Shown piece by piece: positions 14,264-20,744 of a DNA stretch of 64,000 nucleotides; positions within the stretch are counted from its first letter, which is position 1, and each line of letters opens with the position of its first letter. The stretch spans positions 35,742 to 99,741 of the forward strand of contig JASLDW010000092.1 of assembly GCA_030151365.1 (NCBI GenBank). The letters are read 5' to 3'. The position numbers and the translations under genes are program-made. The notes below the pieces were generated by a model. It was not told where the DNA came from. It was given only the letters and a program-made list of their open reading frames with translations, and made no database searches. This stretch comes from Lysobacter sp. (GTDB lineage: Bacteria > Pseudomonadota > Gammaproteobacteria > Xanthomonadales > Xanthomonadaceae).

Positions 14264-14860
14264 TCAGTGATGCAGGGCGTCGGCCGCCAGCATCAGCGCA
14301 TGCTCGCGGATGTCGTCGGGCCAGCCGGCCATGTGTTGTTCGAGTCCGGCGACATCCTGCGCGAACAGCGCGCGCGTCGCCTCCTCGAAACCCGGGAAGT
14401 CGCCGGCCATCGCGTGCATGAAGCGATACGCCGCCTCCTGGCAACCGCGGGCGCGGTCGGATTGCGCGCGACTGCGACGTGCATCCTCCACCAGTTTGCG
14501 CAGCGCCACCGATGCGCCGCCGGGTTGCGCGTTCAACCATTGCCAGTGGCGCGGCAACAGCGTGACTTCGCGCGCGACTACGCCCAGGCGCGGACGGCCA
14601 CGGCCACGCCGGGCGGGCGTTTCATCCTGCGGCGCCGCGATCGGCGCCTCGCCGCTGAGGCGTTGCATCAGGTCGGACATGTTGCCGCGCAGGTCGAGCT
14701 CGATCTGGCTGCCGTCGCGATCGTCGAAGACCAGCAGCCGGGCATCGGAGCGGGCATCCATCGCCTGCTTGGCCTTGATCGCCACATGGCGCAGTTCGCC
14801 GGCGGCGACACGGCGGCCATCGACGAAGGCGGTACAACGGGTATTGGGGCTGTACGACAT
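14264..14860 (-). CDS. DUF2239 family protein
   Basis: GRGRPRLGVVAREVTLLPRHWQWL..QPGGAS, AGDFPGFEEATRALFA, WP.D. Confidence 0.85.
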   Translation of the reverse strand: MSYSPNTRCTAFVDGRRVAAGELRHVAIKAKQAMDARSDARLLVFDDRDGSQIELDLRGNMSDLMQRLSGEAPIAAPQDETPARRGRGRPRLGVVAREVTLLPRHWQWLNAQPGGASVALRKLVEDARRSRAQSDRARGCQEAAYRFMHAMAGDFPGFEEATRALFAQDVAGLEQHMAGWPDDIREHALMLAADALHH

Positions 14861-14889
14861 GCGCAGGCAGGAGATCCGGAGTCCCGCGC

Positions 14890-14918
14890 ATTCTTTTATA
14901 CCCGGATTAAAATGTCAA
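14890..14918 (-). promoter_or_regulatory. Sigma70 promoter of DUF2239-MFS with a palindrome in the spacer
   Basis: TTGACA-17 nt-AAGAAT on -; near-palindrome TTTTATACCCGGATTAAAA at 14894-14912. Confidence 0.65.
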
Positions 14919-15124
14919 GAATGATCGCTCACGGTCCCGGGCGCCTCGTCTTCCACTTCGTGGATGGCGTCGTCCAGCGCCGCCTGCATGCCGATCTTGC
15001 ACAACGTATACAGCGTCTTCGCCTCGACGGCGTTCAGGCCTTTCACGATCAGGCGCACTTCTCCGAACTCCGACTTGAACAGTCGGTCGATGGTCAATTC
15101 GGATTGGGTGTGTGGCTGCGCCAT
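14915..15124 (-). CDS. Small hypothetical protein (69 aa)
   Basis: MAQPHTQSELTIDRLFKSEFGEVRLIVKGL...; GC3-rich codons; GAAGGG upstream of ATG. Confidence 0.65.
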   Translation of the reverse strand: MAQPHTQSELTIDRLFKSEFGEVRLIVKGLNAVEAKTLYTLCKIGMQAALDDAIHEVEDEAPGTVSDHS

Positions 15125-15191
15125 CACCGGCCCTTCACTCTTCTGGGAAAAATCGCGTGAAGATATTGTGTGGAGGCCGCGCTGCGTTCGA

Positions 15192-15230
15192 TCTCGCGGC
15201 ACGCGAACGCAGGGTTCGCGTTGCGCGAAC
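15192..15230. promoter_or_regulatory. LysR-type binding region (perfect box plus degenerate box 22 bp away)
   Basis: GTTCGCG-TTG-CGCGAAC 15214-15230 (T-N11-A with dyad symmetry); TCTCGCG-GCA-CGCGAAC 15192-15208. Confidence 0.6.
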
Positions 15231-15260
15231 AAACCAGGGGGAGGCTTTCGCCTCCCCCTG
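15229..15260 (-). terminator. Intrinsic terminator
   Basis: 11-bp perfect stem CAGGGGGAGGC-GAAA-GCCTCCCCCTG followed by GTTTGTT on -. Confidence 0.75.
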
Positions 15261-15440
15261 ATCAGGATCGCCGAGGACTGGCGCTCGTGGATCCGCTGCG
15301 CATTGCGGGAGGGAGCAGCGGAACCCCGGTATCGAACGGATGGATGCCCGTACCGGTTTTCCCGATCCAAGGGGATGGACCAGGAAGCAAGCGAGGCGGT
15401 TGCGCCGGCTACCCCCTGCGGCCAATGCGACCGCCCGCTC
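15229..15440 (-). ncRNA. Putative small RNA with consecutive hairpins bearing C-rich loops (5' end approximate)
   Basis: Hairpins 15359-15386 (loop UCCCCU), 15326-15356 (AUCCAUCC), 15289-15325 (UCCCUCCC...), 15266-15286 (AGUCCUC), then terminator; G-U pairs in the first two work only on -. Confidence 0.6.
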
Positions 15441-15496
15441 GCCGCCAATGTCGGCCTTGGGCGACGCCTGAACCAGTCAGATGCGGGAAACACGCC

Positions 15497-15513
15497 GTTC
15501 GCGCCTCGCGAAC
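15497..15513. promoter_or_regulatory. Second copy of the LysR-type palindrome
   Basis: GTTCGCG-CCT-CGCGAAC, arms identical to 15214-15230. Confidence 0.6.
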
Positions 15514-15549
15514 AGCCTTGGCACGGCCATTGCCGACCAGGCCGCGGGA

Positions 15550-16452
15550 TCAGTCGCCGGCTGCGCCGGCTTGCGCGGGCGGAACGGCATCACGCAGGAA
15601 TTCGAGCAGTAGCTGTACCTTGCGCGATGCCCGCCGGCTGCGCGCGTAGACCATGGCGACGTGGCCGCGCGGCAGCTGGAGTCCGGGCAGCACCCGCGCC
15701 AGGCGTCGCGCCGCCAGATCCTCGGCAACGATCGCTTCCGGCGCCATCACCACGCCCAGCCCGGCGCGTGCGGCTGCCAGCAATTGGCGATGATCGATGC
15801 AACGCATGCGTTCGCGCACCCGCAACGGCGACCAGTTTTCACCGGTGCGATGGCGCCAGTCATCGTTGCCGTCCGGCATGCCGAGCAATGCCTCGTGCCC
15901 GGACAGCTCCTCCGGCGTGGCCGGCGTGCCGCGTTGTTGCAGATAGTCCGGGCTGGCGCACAACACCCGGTTGAATTCGAACAGCGGGCGCGCGATCAAG
16001 TCGGCGTCTTCGGGGTCGCCGGGCTGGAGCGCGACATCGAAATCGGTCTCGGCGAGGCTGCCCGGCCTGAAGGCATCGACCTGCAAGGTCACTTCCGGGT
16101 GTTCCAGCGCGAAACGGTTGAGCAGCGCCGCGATCTCGCCGTCGTGATAGCCCGGCGCGACGACGACCTTGAGCAATCCTGAAACGATGTTGTTGAAGCC
16201 GGAGGCGAATTCGTTGGCGGCCTGGATCGATTCGAGGATGCGCACGCATTTGGCGTAGTACACCGCGCCGACTTCGGTCGTCCTGGCGCCGCGCGCGCCG
16301 CGCTCCAGCAAGGTGATGCCGAGCGCCTTCTCGAGATCGCCGAGGCGCCGGCTCACCACCGACTTGGTGGTGTCGAGGCGATCGGCCGCCGCCGTCAGGC
16401 TGCCTGCCTCCACCACGGCGACGAAGGTCGCCATGTCATCGATCTGGATCAT
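15550..16452 (-). CDS. LysR-family regulator (CrgA/DmlR-like)
   Basis: FVAVVEAGSLTAAA..L....SVVSRRL..LE..LG..L; LCASPDYL..RGTP..PEEL. Confidence 0.93.
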   Translation of the reverse strand: MIQIDDMATFVAVVEAGSLTAAADRLDTTKSVVSRRLGDLEKALGITLLERGARGARTTEVGAVYYAKCVRILESIQAANEFASGFNNIVSGLLKVVVAPGYHDGEIAALLNRFALEHPEVTLQVDAFRPGSLAETDFDVALQPGDPEDADLIARPLFEFNRVLCASPDYLQQRGTPATPEELSGHEALLGMPDGNDDWRHRTGENWSPLRVRERMRCIDHRQLLAAARAGLGVVMAPEAIVAEDLAARRLARVLPGLQLPRGHVAMVYARSRRASRKVQLLLEFLRDAVPPAQAGAAGD

Positions 16453-16479
16453 CCCCCGCCACATCCCGGATATTCCATC

Positions 16480-17943
16480 TCAGACATCCGCCAGCAGGAT
16501 GTCGAGCGCTTCCTCGAGGGTCGCATCACCGATGCTTCCGGGTACCCGGATCCGGTTCCCGACCTGCGTCCAGCCATCGCGCCCCGCTTCGCCCGCATCG
16601 GCATCGACGATCAGCATCGGCTGCGTGATCGCCTTGCCGGATTCATCGCCGTCATCGACCACGGAGGCGCGCAAGTCGCCGCTGCGCAGCAGGGCCTGCA
16701 TGCGCCCGTTCGCATGGCTTTCGATCGCCGGCACGCCCTTGCCCTGCAGGATCGCGACGACACGCCTGGCCAGCGCGCCATCCTTCAGGGAAACCACGAC
16801 AAGGCGCGCATCGAGCGTGGGCGTGGAAGCCGCCGCGGCGACGCCCGGTGCCAGCGCGGGGATGCGGATCCACAGCAGATGCCCGCCCTCGACGCGCTCG
16901 ACCAGTTCGACGGCGGCATTCAACCGCTGCAACAGGTTCTGGCTGGCCGCGAGCAGCAGGCTGCCGCGCGCGTTGGAATGCAACAGGTCGACGGTGGTCA
17001 CCAGTTCGCCGAAGCGTTCCGCCGACAGGCCGCTCGGCTCGGCCTCGAGTTCGATTTCGAGGTGCTGGTCCTTGGTCGCCAGCGCCACCCGCAATTCGCC
17101 GCGTTCCATGCCATCGAGCGCATGCACGACGAGATTGACGAGCAGGCGGCGCAGGGCGAGGTCGTCGACTTCGATCAGCGCGGTGTTTTCCGGGATGCGC
17201 AGTTCCAGCGCGATGCCGCGCATGCCCGCCTGCAAGGCGAACGAATCCTGGAGGAATCCGGCGAGGCGATCGAGGCTGATCATGCCGCGCTGTTCCTTGC
17301 CGGTCGCCAGCTCGCCGAGGCCGACCAGCGCATTCGACGACAACGCATCCAGGCGCATCACCGCGTGCTGCATCGCCGCCACCGAGTTCAACGCCGCGGA
17401 ATCGCCGTGCAGCTTGCGCGCGAGCAACTGCACGTGGCCGGTCAGCAGCAGCAGCGATTCGCGCATCTCGGACGAGACCATCTCGAGCAGGCCCGCGCCC
17501 TGGCGGAACACCCTGTCGCCCGCCGGCGACGCACTCCCGCGCGCGGCGTCGCGACGCTTGCCCGCGGCCTTCTCCATCCGCTGCTGGTCGAGTTCGGCTT
17601 CATGGTCGAGTTGCTGGCGTTCGCGCAACGCCTGCATCGCCGCCGAGACATCGCGCAACACGAAATGACGGAGGTCGTTCTCGAAGAACAGGTTGACGTC
17701 GGCGTAGCGTCCGTCGGATACCTCGACCGCGCCCAGCCGTTCCGGCAGCCCGCCTTCACCGCAGGCCAGAAGCGCCAGGCGCGAAATCATGGCATCGACG
17801 CTGTCGCCCGCACTGACGAAGGCCTCGAGGTCGCCGACGATATCGACGACCTTATCGTCGCCATCCAGCGTCACCACCACGGGCAACGTGGCCATGCCCC
17901 GCTCGGGCTTGCCGCTGCGCGATCGCGTCCGCGCCGGCCCCAT
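16480..17943 (-). CDS. Degenerate hybrid histidine-kinase-like protein (probable pseudokinase); alternative start 17895
   Basis: PAS-like N-terminus, coiled coil, HisKA-like VSSEMRESL, HATPase-like LRRLLVNLVVHAL...GELRV, receiver-like C-terminus; TGATG coupling to GTPase stop. Confidence 0.75.
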   Translation of the reverse strand: MGPARTRSRSGKPERGMATLPVVVTLDGDDKVVDIVGDLEAFVSAGDSVDAMISRLALLACGEGGLPERLGAVEVSDGRYADVNLFFENDLRHFVLRDVSAAMQALRERQQLDHEAELDQQRMEKAAGKRRDAARGSASPAGDRVFRQGAGLLEMVSSEMRESLLLLTGHVQLLARKLHGDSAALNSVAAMQHAVMRLDALSSNALVGLGELATGKEQRGMISLDRLAGFLQDSFALQAGMRGIALELRIPENTALIEVDDLALRRLLVNLVVHALDGMERGELRVALATKDQHLEIELEAEPSGLSAERFGELVTTVDLLHSNARGSLLLAASQNLLQRLNAAVELVERVEGGHLLWIRIPALAPGVAAAASTPTLDARLVVVSLKDGALARRVVAILQGKGVPAIESHANGRMQALLRSGDLRASVVDDGDESGKAITQPMLIVDADAGEAGRDGWTQVGNRIRVPGSIGDATLEEALDILLADV

Positions 17944-18443
17944 CACGCCAGCGTCCGCGCCAGTGCGGCGAAGGCTTCCTCGACGCCGGTGGCCAGCTTG
18001 GCGCTGGCGGTGAACGTCGGCAGCTGCCCCTGCAGTTCGCGGATGCGTTCCCGCGGAATCGCCCAGGCATCGGCGAGATCGGATTTGTTGAGCATCAGCA
18101 CGCCCGGGATCTCGCGTCCCAGCAGGCGCCAGGCCTGCCCGCGCAATTCCAGCGCGGTATCGACCGTGTCCTCGCGGGTGCCGTCGGCGACCAGCAAAAT
18201 GCCTTGCGCGCCGATCACGTAATTGCTGCGCAGCTGGTCGAGCGTGTTGGCGCCGGCGATGTCCCACAGCACCAGGCGCATCTGCAGGTCGTCGTCCAGC
18301 ATCATCGCCTTGCTGTCGACGCGCACGCCAACGGTGGTCAGGTACGTGTCGGAAAAGGTGTTGCGCACACTGCGCGCGACCGTACTGGTCTTGCCGACGG
18401 CGAAATCGCCGAGGAGGATGATCTTGCGGGAAATCGACTTCAT
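17943..18443 (-). CDS. Rab/Ras-like small GTPase (166 aa)
   Basis: G1 GDFAVGKT, G2 YLTTVG, G3 WDIAG, G4 NKSD, G5 SAK; ATGA overlap with upstream gene. Confidence 0.92.
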   Translation of the reverse strand: MKSISRKIILLGDFAVGKTSTVARSVRNTFSDTYLTTVGVRVDSKAMMLDDDLQMRLVLWDIAGANTLDQLRSNYVIGAQGILLVADGTREDTVDTALELRGQAWRLLGREIPGVLMLNKSDLADAWAIPRERIRELQGQLPTFTASAKLATGVEEAFAALARTLA

Positions 18444-20143
18444 GGCTTCGCCGGGAAAGGTTCGACGGCAAGCGTGGTCGCGCGCACGCCGGAGCCGGGC
18501 AGGATGTAGATGGCGGATTGATCGATGGTGACCGTCGATGGCGACTTGAGCGCTTTCATCGCACGCGTGGCCAACCATTCCGAACGCTGCTGGCGCAGGC
18601 TGCGGTTCTGCTCGTAGCTGCCGGCTTCGTCGGTGAAACCGGACGCCTTCAGCCGGAACGCGATCCCGCGCGCCTGTCCTTCGGCGACCAATGCATCGAT
18701 GTCGTGCATCAGGTCCTCGATCTTCCGGTCCATGCCGTTGCTCGGCTGCGCGGTGCCGCTGTCGAACACCACCGCCGCCGATTCGATCCGCTTGATCAAT
18801 GCATCGACCCGCGGCTTGCCCGGATAGGCGAGGGCGCCGGCATCGAGGCGCACGGAATCCAGTGGCACCGCACCCGGTCGTGTCGCTGCATACCATTTCG
18901 GGAACGGCACTTCACCGCGCAGGCGGACCACTCCTTCGGATTGCGCGTATTGCACGTTGGTCTCATCCAGGCCCAAGCGCCCGGCGACGCGGCGACGGAT
19001 GATGGCCGGTTCGAGCGATGCATACGGTCGCACGTCCCAGGTGACGCGGGTGTCAGGGTCGTGCGCGGCCGCCCATGCCTTCACGCCTTCGGCCTGCGGA
19101 TCCATCAATCCGCTGACGACCACGCGGTTGCGATGGCTGTCATCCCAGCGGGTGATCACCAACCCCGGCTCGGCGGCCAGGTGATCGCGCAGTGCCGAAG
19201 ACCGCATGTGCCAGCGCACCTGCATCGCGACGTAGGCAAGCGCGGCGACGGCCAGCACGATCAGCGCCCGTTGGGCGATCTTGCGTTGGCCCTGCGCCTT
19301 CCCGGCGGCGACATCGTTGCGCGGATTCAGCGCCTCGAGTTGCGATTGGCCGAGCAGCCCGTGTTCCGGGTCGCCCGCCTGGCCGTCCGCAGCCAGCTGG
19401 CTGCCGTGATGGGCATGCAACGCTTCGTTGATTTCGTCGAGGCGAACGCCGAAGTGCTGGTCGGGCACGCCGCGCACGAAGGCGACGAGGCGCGCGTGCG
19501 GGCCTTCGCTGACGGCGAGGTGATAGCCGCCGACCATCGCCGAACCGATGCCGCTTCCACCATCAACGAGTACGGAATCGCGAACGAACTGATTGATCGC
19601 GGTGAACATCCCGGCGACCGCGTCCGCATCGAGCTCCGGCAAACCCTTCGCGGTGACGTGCCCCAGCAGCAAGCCGCTGTCGGGCTCGATCATGAAGAGA
19701 TGTTCGACCTGGTAGCGCGTGGTCCGGCGCAACACCACCCAGGCATAGGGAATGCCGGTGCGCCAGGCTTCGAAGCGCCAGCGCAAGGCGCGCGGGCTGA
19801 AGGTCTCGCGCATCGAACGATCGAAACCGTCGGACATTTCGCGCAAGGCTTCGGCGATGGAACGACGGATCGCCGGGCCGATCACCGGATAGACGACATT
19901 GACCACCGTCTCCGGCTTGCGCCGCACCGCCAGCTCGAGCGAGCCGGTGGTTGCTTCCGCCAAGGCATCGCCCAGGCGCGTGCGCTCGCCGTCGCGGACA
20001 TTGCGCTCGATGTCTTCCGCGAGCCGATCCGGAACCGTGGCGAATTCCGCCCTGGTTTCCGCCAGCTTTTCCTCGAGCACGTCGAGGCGGCTGCTCTCCG
20101 GGGTGAGCAGCAAATGGCGCAGGCGGTCATATTCACCGCTCAC
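18440..20143 (-). CDS. Single-pass membrane protein: cytoplasmic helical + longin-like domain, periplasmic BON-like + OmpA-like domain
   Basis: SGLLL...DADAVAGMFTAINQFVRDS; TM ALIVLAVAALAYVAM; VFDSG...GFTDEAGSYEQNRSLRQQR. Confidence 0.8.
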   Translation of the reverse strand: MSGEYDRLRHLLLTPESSRLDVLEEKLAETRAEFATVPDRLAEDIERNVRDGERTRLGDALAEATTGSLELAVRRKPETVVNVVYPVIGPAIRRSIAEALREMSDGFDRSMRETFSPRALRWRFEAWRTGIPYAWVVLRRTTRYQVEHLFMIEPDSGLLLGHVTAKGLPELDADAVAGMFTAINQFVRDSVLVDGGSGIGSAMVGGYHLAVSEGPHARLVAFVRGVPDQHFGVRLDEINEALHAHHGSQLAADGQAGDPEHGLLGQSQLEALNPRNDVAAGKAQGQRKIAQRALIVLAVAALAYVAMQVRWHMRSSALRDHLAAEPGLVITRWDDSHRNRVVVSGLMDPQAEGVKAWAAAHDPDTRVTWDVRPYASLEPAIIRRRVAGRLGLDETNVQYAQSEGVVRLRGEVPFPKWYAATRPGAVPLDSVRLDAGALAYPGKPRVDALIKRIESAAVVFDSGTAQPSNGMDRKIEDLMHDIDALVAEGQARGIAFRLKASGFTDEAGSYEQNRSLRQQRSEWLATRAMKALKSPSTVTIDQSAIYILPGSGVRATTLAVEPFPAKP

Positions 20144-20153
20144 GGCGGGCGCC

Positions 20154-20744
20154 TCAGGCGTGTCCGCTGTCGTCCTGCGCGCCTCGCAGGCGCAATGAGA
20201 GCTCCGCCATCATGTCGGCGAGGTCCTCGCGCGCCACCTTTTCGTCGCCCAAGCGGCGATGGCCGGCGGAGAACTGTTCCTTCGCGCCCTGCAGTGCCGC
20301 ACCCATCTGTTGTTCAAGCTGGGCCATCGCTTCGCGCGCGCGCGATTCCGTCGCGATTGCATCGTCCTCGTGGCGCTGCAGGGTGGCGGTGAATTCGTTG
20401 GACTGGGTGCGCAGGGCCTGGTTGAAGCGGCTCTCGGCATCTTCCAGCGCACCGCTGCGGGCAGCCGATTCCTGGCGCAACTGCGCCTGCAGGCGTTCGA
20501 TCTGGGCGTTCGCGCGCGCCTCGAGCTCGGCCACGCGCTTCTGGCAATCAGCCTGGATGCGGGCGGATTCGGCCTCGAAGCGGTCGTGGAGCTCGGCGAG
20601 GCGACGCTCGAAATCGCGGACCACGCTGCCGAACATCAGCTCGCGGATCTGTTCCATCTTGTGTTCGCCCTGCGGCGGACTGGCGGCACCGTTCGCCTTG
20701 TCGGCGCCTGCGCCCGGATTCTGTTGCCCGTTCTTGCCGGCCAT
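20154..20744 (-). CDS. Coiled-coil hypothetical protein, first gene of the GTPase operon
   Basis: MEQIRELMFG..RDFERRL, long heptad-rich helix, ends KVAREDLADMMAELSLRL; 10-bp gap to next gene. Confidence 0.8.
   Translation of the reverse strand: MAGKNGQQNPGAGADKANGAASPPQGEHKMEQIRELMFGSVVRDFERRLAELHDRFEAESARIQADCQKRVAELEARANAQIERLQAQLRQESAARSGALEDAESRFNQALRTQSNEFTATLQRHEDDAIATESRAREAMAQLEQQMGAALQGAKEQFSAGHRRLGDEKVAREDLADMMAELSLRLRGAQDDSGHA

Follow-up and report, generated by a model that had tools for sequence, protein, structure and literature searches.

A candidate LysR-controlled multi-hairpin RNA with C-rich loops next to a Rup-like GTPase cluster in Xanthomonadaceae

The lysR locus and its gene neighborhood

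The window, a 64,000-nucleotide stretch of a Lysobacter genome (G000), carries on its minus strand a lysR gene, a multi-hairpin element behind it and a 69-aa ORF, with a palindromic box ahead of each of the latter two (Table 1). The lysR gene closes a cluster of four genes in conserved order, encoding a hypothetical protein, a membrane protein, a small GTPase and a degenerate kinase-like protein, which, judged by its sequences and gene order, appears to fit the Group 1 Rup systems. As described in PMC4316618, the Group 1 Rup neighborhood comprises a coiled-coil protein, an OmpA-domain membrane protein, a GTPase lacking the G3 glutamine and a kinase or c-di-GMP output protein, with an invariant glutamine in the N-terminal region of the output protein; the same paper, a 2014 survey, reports no experimentally characterized member of this group, and our literature search for 'Rup GTPase' found nothing beyond this paper. 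The window cluster includes a hypothetical protein, a membrane protein with an OmpA-like end, a GTPase that likewise lacks the G3 glutamine and a kinase-like output gene, in a conserved and consistent order, with the OmpA-like and kinase matches below the cut-offs. It departs from Group 1 Rup systems in the degenerate state of its kinase-like gene and in the LysR gene and RNA that come next; the word LysR is absent from the main text of the survey.

Table 1. Predicted features around the multi-hairpin element (window coordinates).
Feature	Position	Strand	Basis
69-aa ORF under box 2, without family assignment, beta-beta-alpha by prediction	14915..15124	-	domain, fold and codon analyses
-10-like hexamer CACAAT, 43 nt after box 2	15165..15170	-	GACAAT in G006, G008, G014
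Second half-site of box 2	15203..15208	-	five-genome comparison
Promoter box 2, over terminator tail	15214..15230	-	pattern and matrix
Predicted sRNA, ~215 nt	15226..15441	-	5' end inferred from -10-like hexamer, 3' end from terminator tail
Terminator-like GAAA hairpin, weak U-tail	15226..15263	-	fold; not called by terminator scan
Hairpin 4, loop AGUCCUC (15279-15273)	15266..15286	-	fold; UCCUC invariant in six aligned copies
Hairpin 3, 15-nt loop starting UCCCUCCC (15314-15307)	15289..15325	-	fold; CCUCCC in 5/5 orthologs
Hairpin 2, loop AUCCAUCC (15345-15338)	15326..15356	-	fold
Hairpin 1, loop UCCCCU (15375-15370)	15359..15386	-	fold
5' hairpin, loop AGGGG	15389..15440	-	fold; first hairpin of G006/G014 has ANGGA loop
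-10-like hexamer GACATT, weak, 44 nt after box 1	15447..15452	-	sequence
Second half-site of box 1, 22 bp after first	15486..15491	-	five-genome comparison
Promoter box 1, GTTCGC-N5-GCGAAC, predicted LysR recognition site	15497..15513	-	pattern and matrix
lysR, predicted activator	15550..16452	-	domain match, ortholog searches
Degenerate histidine-kinase-like gene	16480..17895	-	best E 1e-5, far below cut-offs; no Pfam match
Small Ras-like GTPase, G3 = DIAGA (no Gln)	17943..18443	-	Ras/Roc matches and translation
Membrane protein, faint C-terminal OmpA-like stretch	18440..20143	-	E 0.04-0.09 only
Hypothetical protein, position of the coiled-coil gene of Rup clusters	20154..20744	-	gene order

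For the 69-aa protein, searches of Pfam, NCBIfam, the Atlas and known folds returned no match (best fold Z 4.0, a value that excludes no fold), eight matches were found among cluster representatives, the last two of them repeat-like, and no match came from metagenomes searched with an alignment of the small protein. Other members of this predicted beta-beta-alpha family are encoded at L033:7577-7762 and L379:2505-2690, and the gene is duplicated around the RNA in two relatives (G006 and G014); in two genomes of another genus (g11), a remote homolog of the small ORF follows the lysR ortholog (hhalign probability 30%, E 5e-4). The reading frame of the ORF remains open through the RNA; a coding N-terminal extension was nevertheless rejected because the conserved hairpin falls in different frames in G000 and G020, the frame in G014 spans just 74 aa, and the codon model starts at 15124. 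Further downstream (~14890-14918, minus strand), a TTGACA motif followed by a conserved AT-rich palindrome (ATTTTA-N9-TAAAAT, with one arm imperfect in the window) lies ahead of the DUF2239 and MFS genes in 5/5 genomes, and might be an operator; in four relatives, a hairpin with a G-rich loop is located just ahead of these motifs.

Fold, strand and loops of the element

On the minus strand, 15229-15440 gives a fold of five hairpins plus a terminator-like stem, with an energy of -117.2 kcal/mol (z -5.42, with none of 200 shuffles as good), and the plus strand folds more poorly (-103.4 kcal/mol, z -2.36, 5 of 200 shuffles). The sequence-only reading that drew attention to this element had described four minus-strand hairpins with C-rich loops; all four are present in the fold, and a fifth, at the 5' end, had been overlooked. 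Four C-rich loops are more than any of 100 shuffles contains (mean 0.86). Under a stricter loop rule, by which the window RNA scores three, at least three such loops occur on 10 of the 1036 intergenic strands of G000, a list that also includes the sX13-like locus and the paralog described below; a looser genome-wide scan of G000 for hairpins with C-rich loops produced 20 clusters. No GGA is exposed in the minus-strand fold of the window copy.

The preference of that reading for the minus strand is borne out by the folding scores and by the G-U pairs (10 on the minus strand, 6 on the plus strand); the U-tail, to which it also appealed, is weak (UUUGUU) and overlaps box 2. The anatomy resembles that of an sRNA, with hairpins followed by a GAAA-capped stem of 11 Watson-Crick pairs (14 counting the outer pairs) that begins 287 nt past the lysR stop, but the terminator itself was not called by the terminator scan, which called nothing at the window RNA; on the plus strand of the locus, neither a promoter nor a terminator was called. 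The description of the element as unannotated agrees with our Rfam model search, in which no family matched the window locus, its orthologs or its relatives; the sole sub-cut-off match was to RsmW, for the 5' half of one relative (30.4 bits against a cut-off of 52, E 0.22).

Promoter boxes and the predicted LysR regulon

The pattern GTTCGC-N5-GCGAAC occurs three times in G000, twice around the window RNA; the bare 12-bp palindrome is not enriched on its own (3 found, 1.6 expected). In all five carriers of the RNA in the genus (G000, G006, G008, G014 and G020), a box precedes the RNA and another precedes the 69-aa ORF; 5 nt after each box comes a GTT half-site, and 43-44 nt after it a -10-like hexamer. 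The box arms are constant and the five central bases vary across the carriers, as would be expected of a protein-binding site. LysR-type sites consist of a T-N11-A dyad ~65 nt before the start and a second, imperfect site ~22 bp further, and the dyad and second half-site observed here fit this layout of recognition and activation sites. A matrix trained on ten sites from the other genomes, without G000, ranks the two window boxes at the top (30.9 and 24.6, the next score being 15.4).

Within 24 genomes of the genus, the box pattern has 21 matches, 15 in the five genomes with a lysR ortholog and the remaining six at one coding site shared by six genomes. The lysR ortholog is found in 5 of the 24 genomes, and the RNA and the box in the same five; this co-occurrence is not independent because the carrier genomes are kin, and the RNA-model matches in these five are the training set of the model. 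The co-occurrence of box and lysR is the observation that bears on the predicted activation of the RNA by LysR, and, together with the box found behind lysR in a second genus, it supports the earlier suggestion that the RNA may be an output of the upstream operon. With its regulator gene at the end of a Rup-type small-GTPase cluster, the RNA would act as an output of that cluster at the post-transcriptional level.

In two carriers (G006 and G014), extra boxes precede a YadA-like adhesin gene and a second C-rich multi-hairpin RNA, and lie between tandem genes for DUF11-type surface proteins (L286, G006:C12:76443; L278, G014:C2:694581); the latter boxes suggest a wider adhesin regulon. The second box-driven RNA (L036:14767-15000 in G006; ~80 nt behind lysR in G014, L037) has loops AACCCC, UUACCCCUUUUU and CUUCCAACA and a U-tail, and precedes the YadA-like adhesin gene, which has a box of its own. 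At a more remote locus (L324, G424), a GTTCGG-N5-CCGAAC box is located 157 nt behind the gene for a LysR that is less closely related (36%) but resembles the window LysR in its recognition helix, before an oxidoreductase-like gene; five more distant LysRs from other families (34-39%) have neither a box nor a kinase-like neighbor.

Orthologs in the genus, a paralog and an sX13-like locus

A BLAST search of 61 relatives gave three real matches to the RNA (G006, G008 and G014), and the copy in G020 was found through lysR. Relatives that bear names suggest that the genus is Solilutibacter. The orthologs are 118-218 nt long and vary in their 5' ends, stems and number of hairpins; the constant elements are the last two C-rich loops (CCUCCC and UCCUC) and the terminator, whose loop on the minus strand is GAAA, UUCG or GUGA in the orthologs and GCAA in the paralog. 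GNRA and UUCG loops are extra stable. The U-tails are clearer in G006, G014 and G020 and weak in G000 and G008. In G000, G008 and G020, the RNA immediately follows lysR and shares its strand; in G006 and G014, inserted genes separate the two by ~17 kb and ~11 kb, respectively, with the box, the spacing and the -10-like hexamer kept.

A covariance model of the six genus copies, namely five orthologs and the paralog (R1), detected nothing beyond the known copies above 29 bits in the 24 genus genomes, and a single 30.7-bit match, in another genus, in 150 genomes of the family (L332, G076:C4:320491-320587); the RNA-model searches scored only 150 or 27 candidates per genome, so that their blanks carry little weight. 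Pattern scans of metagenome and viral contigs yielded 231 loci; a loose screen retained 15, but there was no homolog among them and no locus encoding a protein of the window, and a plasmid search gave one chance match of 40 nt. Among public sequencing runs, no holder of the RNA was found, and the contigs assembled from three runs contained no more than scraps of the locus; neither outcome is informative about expression.

The paralog (L002, G000:C92 ~65070-65215, minus strand) has four C-rich hairpins, with the last hairpin and the terminator nearly identical to those of the window RNA. It starts ~10 nt after the stop of a DUF11 gene and has no box, and is perhaps a 3'-UTR-derived copy. The Rfam model of sX13 (RF02232) matches G000 at a single place with E<=1, namely L028 (C83:44275-44385, plus strand), 137 nt after polA; the score of 33.5 bits is below the Rfam cut-off of 50, and the locus is a divergent sX13.

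Relatives in other genera

LysR was found at E<=1e-45 in 21 of 400 genomes of the family, and at 45-51% identity the kinase-like gene precedes it in 6 of 7 cases. In a second genus, which includes G327 and is Pseudoxanthomonas judging by how the nearest proteins are named, a lysR ortholog occurs in 15 of 78 genomes; 14 of these orthologs have the kinase-like gene, a box 52-189 nt behind lysR and a multi-hairpin RNA next, and the fifteenth has neither the kinase-like gene nor a box. The box pattern applied here allowed up to two mismatches, and the same loose pattern is found behind 22 of 2439 ordinary genes of G000. Most of the 14 second-genus loci have TAnnnT at +43 from the box, 13 of the 14 have just one box, and an ORF follows closely after the terminator; the gene behind the RNA is not the same between the genera, and the RNA is retained. 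A box is also present behind the lysR ortholog of a third genus (G156), and the two g11 genomes have a degenerate box but no such RNA.

Ten of the 14 second-genus loci and G156 have a two-domain RNA of 250-320 nt. In these 11 RNAs, exposed GGA is found only in the first 42% of the length and C-rich loops only after 41%, so that GGA loops do occur at this locus, in the 5' half of the sense strand of relatives. The other four second-genus RNAs are GGA-dominated; RNAs of this type at the orthologous locus (L364, L366, L367 and L371) are, by their sequences, candidates for new CsrA/RsmA sponges of Xanthomonadaceae. The number of GGA loops reaches four in G345 (0/100 shuffles) and five in G425 (1/100), and is one to three in the two-domain relatives; it is above shuffles in G345, G425, G440 and G449, and not above shuffles in G327, G486, G489, G156 and G006. 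As in the second genus, a single ANGGA loop is kept in G006 and G014, one tenth of the way along the RNA; such a loop is missing from the window copy and from G008 and G020.

The sequence-only reading had proposed conservation and covariation as checks. The loops are conserved; in the poorly aligned six-sequence alignment of the genus only 2 of 17 pairs show two-sided change, compared with 8 of 25 in ten aligned second-genus sequences of the 3' module, where 94.4% of cells are paired. For this module, none of 500 shuffles reached the covariation, in a test that relatedness inflates, and slid controls were lower. R1 scores the RNAs of G411, G327 and G156 at 21-24 bits. A model built only from second-genus RNAs (R2) has the paralog as its best match in G000, with 33.5 bits, and the window copy as its third, with 22.8 bits and a genome-wide E of 0.13; it also, within the window, gives a plus-strand stretch a slightly higher score (25.1 bits), and failed to find the expected ortholog loci in all five other genomes tried. 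What the genera have in common is position, box and spacing, with weak sequence homology that rests mainly on position; common descent of the 3' module across the genera appears likely.

Comparison with known small RNAs

One close structural parallel of the window RNA comes from the same bacterial family. sX13 has adjacent stable hairpins with apical C-rich loops, and the UCCCCU loop of hairpin 1 shares its core with the loop CUCCCCU of the sX13-like RNA of G000. According to PMC3771888, sX13 is always located behind polA and represses mRNAs with G-rich motifs independently of Hfq. The window RNA is not downstream of polA, is ~215 nt long compared with 115, has its own LysR-type box, is patchily distributed, and, instead of three stem-loops with 4C/5C loops, has four C-rich loops, one of them with CCCC, and a terminator with a GNRA (GAAA) loop; the sX13 model has no match at E<=10 in 14500-16500. 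With the sX13-like match behind polA on another contig, the distinction from sX13 that the sequence-only reading had drawn is upheld.

For the arrangement of LysR, RNA and small protein, the closest regulatory model, by analogy, would be VtlR/LsrB, which, according to PMC8844928 and PMC7486931, activate AbcR sRNAs and small proteins in alphaproteobacteria. Here too, a neighboring LysR-type regulator, an anti-SD sRNA and a small hypothetical protein would form one regulon, and the aSD1 motif of AbcR, CUCCUCCC, has a counterpart in UCCCUCCC of the window RNA. Unlike AbcR1/2, the window locus belongs to a gammaproteobacterium, is tied to a Rup-type cluster and adhesins, and its activation is a prediction; neither AbcR nor alpha-r15 matched the locus, its orthologs or its relatives in Rfam. 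The window RNA and its relatives share with the cuckoo RNAs (as presented in PMC4615179) two to four adjacent modular hairpins with variable stems, C-rich loops and paralogs in one genome, but lack the CCUCCUCCC found in each cuckoo loop, have mutually different loops and are gammaproteobacterial. Sponges of the Csr/Rsm type, such as RsmW (RF02809) and RsmU (a 117-nt product of the comEA 3'-UTR according to PMC7694677), resemble the relatives at the same locus in having several GGA loops, unlike the window copy, where GGA is not exposed. The window RNA is an sRNA candidate that is not described in Rfam, would work like sX13 and AbcR, and lies outside the sX13, cuckoo, AbcR and Csr/Rsm families. 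We found no account of it in the literature; sRNA catalogues or Rup neighborhood tables in supplements could contain it.

Predicted targets, mechanism and alternative explanations

The anti-Shine-Dalgarno character attributed to the loops is only in part reflected in target predictions, which used rough gene calls made for this analysis. Loop 1 prefers start regions over coding sequence (10.7% compared with 5%), but loops 2-4 do not (6.3, 4.1 and 4.9% compared with 5%), and shuffled loop-1 seeds give values about as high as loop 1. The lysR start regions carry GGGG in all five carriers; when 2429 start regions are ranked for the cognate loop, they come within the top 1.4-2.4% in four carriers and at 8.8% in G008; among GGGG-bearing start regions, the rank is just 9-41%, and in the second genus, where the start of lysR ranks at 7-80% for the two-domain RNAs, the ranking is not repeated. 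An apparent covariation between the loop and the lysR start was rejected on a failed permutation test, cognate pairs being no better than swapped ones (fraction 0.47-0.5). The leaders of the adhesin genes rank at 4.1% (G006) and 1.8% (G014) among start regions; pilZ, the best match for loop 4, was dropped with the full site missing in G006, G008 and G014. A gene for Hfq is present, and csrA is found in the four other carriers; the absence of csrA from G000 is an assembly gap because the adjacent recA and alaS (the recA-alaS-csrA region) are also unassembled.

Taking together the observed fold, strand bias, conserved loops and box architecture, we consider it probable (at roughly 0.6) that the minus-strand element is a conserved independent sRNA that is activated by LysR through the palindromic box and represses translation by pairing of its C-rich loops with G-rich ribosome-binding sites. 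Under this model, LysR would bind box 1 and box 2 and switch on the RNA and the 69-aa protein, respectively; the exposed C-rich loops would pair with G-rich start regions, as those of sX13 do, and block translation in trans. In G006 and G014, the same box would also command the YadA-like adhesin and the DUF11 surface proteins, and the lysR start region, itself a candidate target, could close a negative feedback loop.

Alternatively, the C-rich loops, which are complementary to AGGGGA, GGAUGGAU, GGGAGGGA and GAGGAC, might serve to tune the CsrA circuit and not to govern ribosome access as such, either by binding a protein or by pairing with GGA in the CsrA sites of mRNAs, in Csr-type sRNAs or, in two-domain relatives, in the 5' loops of the RNA itself. 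The separation of GGA and C-rich loops in the 11 two-domain relatives and the presence of csrA in the other carriers speak for this possibility, but the window copy offers no exposed GGA for pairing in cis, the altered last loop of G482 and G461 (CUGCG) is not matched by a change in their 5' ACGGAG loop, and sX13 is a precedent for mRNA pairing, so that we regard it as rather unlikely. It also seems unlikely that the hairpins act in cis, as a 5' leader or attenuator of a transcript that starts at box 1, passes the weak terminator and extends through the 69-aa ORF to the DUF2239 and MFS genes. The weak U-tails of G000 and G008, and the single box and closely following ORF of the second genus, are compatible with such a leader, but in all five genomes a separate conserved box and -10-like hexamer serve the 69-aa ORF, the U-tails of the other three carriers are clearer, and between genera the downstream gene is swapped while the RNA stays.

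Quite improbable, in our view, is a fragment cut from the 3'-UTR of the Rup-lysR operon mRNA with no primary transcript of its own: the position directly behind lysR in three carriers, the boxless paralog behind the DUF11 gene and, in Xanthomonas, the origin of RsmU (PMC7694677) would agree with it, but in G006 and G014 the RNA is many kilobases away from lysR and has nevertheless kept the box, spacing and -10-like hexamer. The alternative favored second by the sequence-only reading, a plus-strand RNA that sequesters CsrA/RsmA through GGA loops, is highly improbable, because the 12 GGA and 4 ANGGA motifs of that strand (three GGA loops in one fold) and its 25.1-bit R2 match are set against its weaker fold, the orientation of box, half-site and -10-like hexamer to the minus strand, tetraloops and U-tails that suit only the minus strand, the lack of a called plus-strand promoter or terminator, and the composition of the R2 match, which draws on the terminator and box, both symmetric, and includes neither C- nor G-loops.

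For the preferred reading, that of a LysR-activated sRNA pairing with mRNAs, a broader scenario can be formulated, which we hold to be possible but doubtful: a single orthologous LysR-driven locus would have evolved among three modes, a CsrA sponge whose loops are all of the GGA type, a two-domain RNA in which CsrA trapping is combined with the blocking of ribosome-binding sites, and the pure anti-SD form of the window. The RNA would also be the first output to be identified for a Group 1 Rup system, with surface adhesion under its control and with feedback on lysR. The combination of box, sRNA and small protein would offer a direct reporter for the function of Rup clusters, and the locus a natural series for the gain and loss of CsrA-binding and mRNA-pairing domains in sRNAs. 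The window RNA would also add a second C-rich sRNA family, beside sX13, to Xanthomonadaceae, in culturable environmental genera. Other stretches of G000 with three C-rich hairpin loops, at C92:19551-19850 (plus strand), C106:56242-56449 (plus strand), C34:5468-5821 (minus strand) and C125:29804-29889 (plus strand), are possible sRNAs as well.
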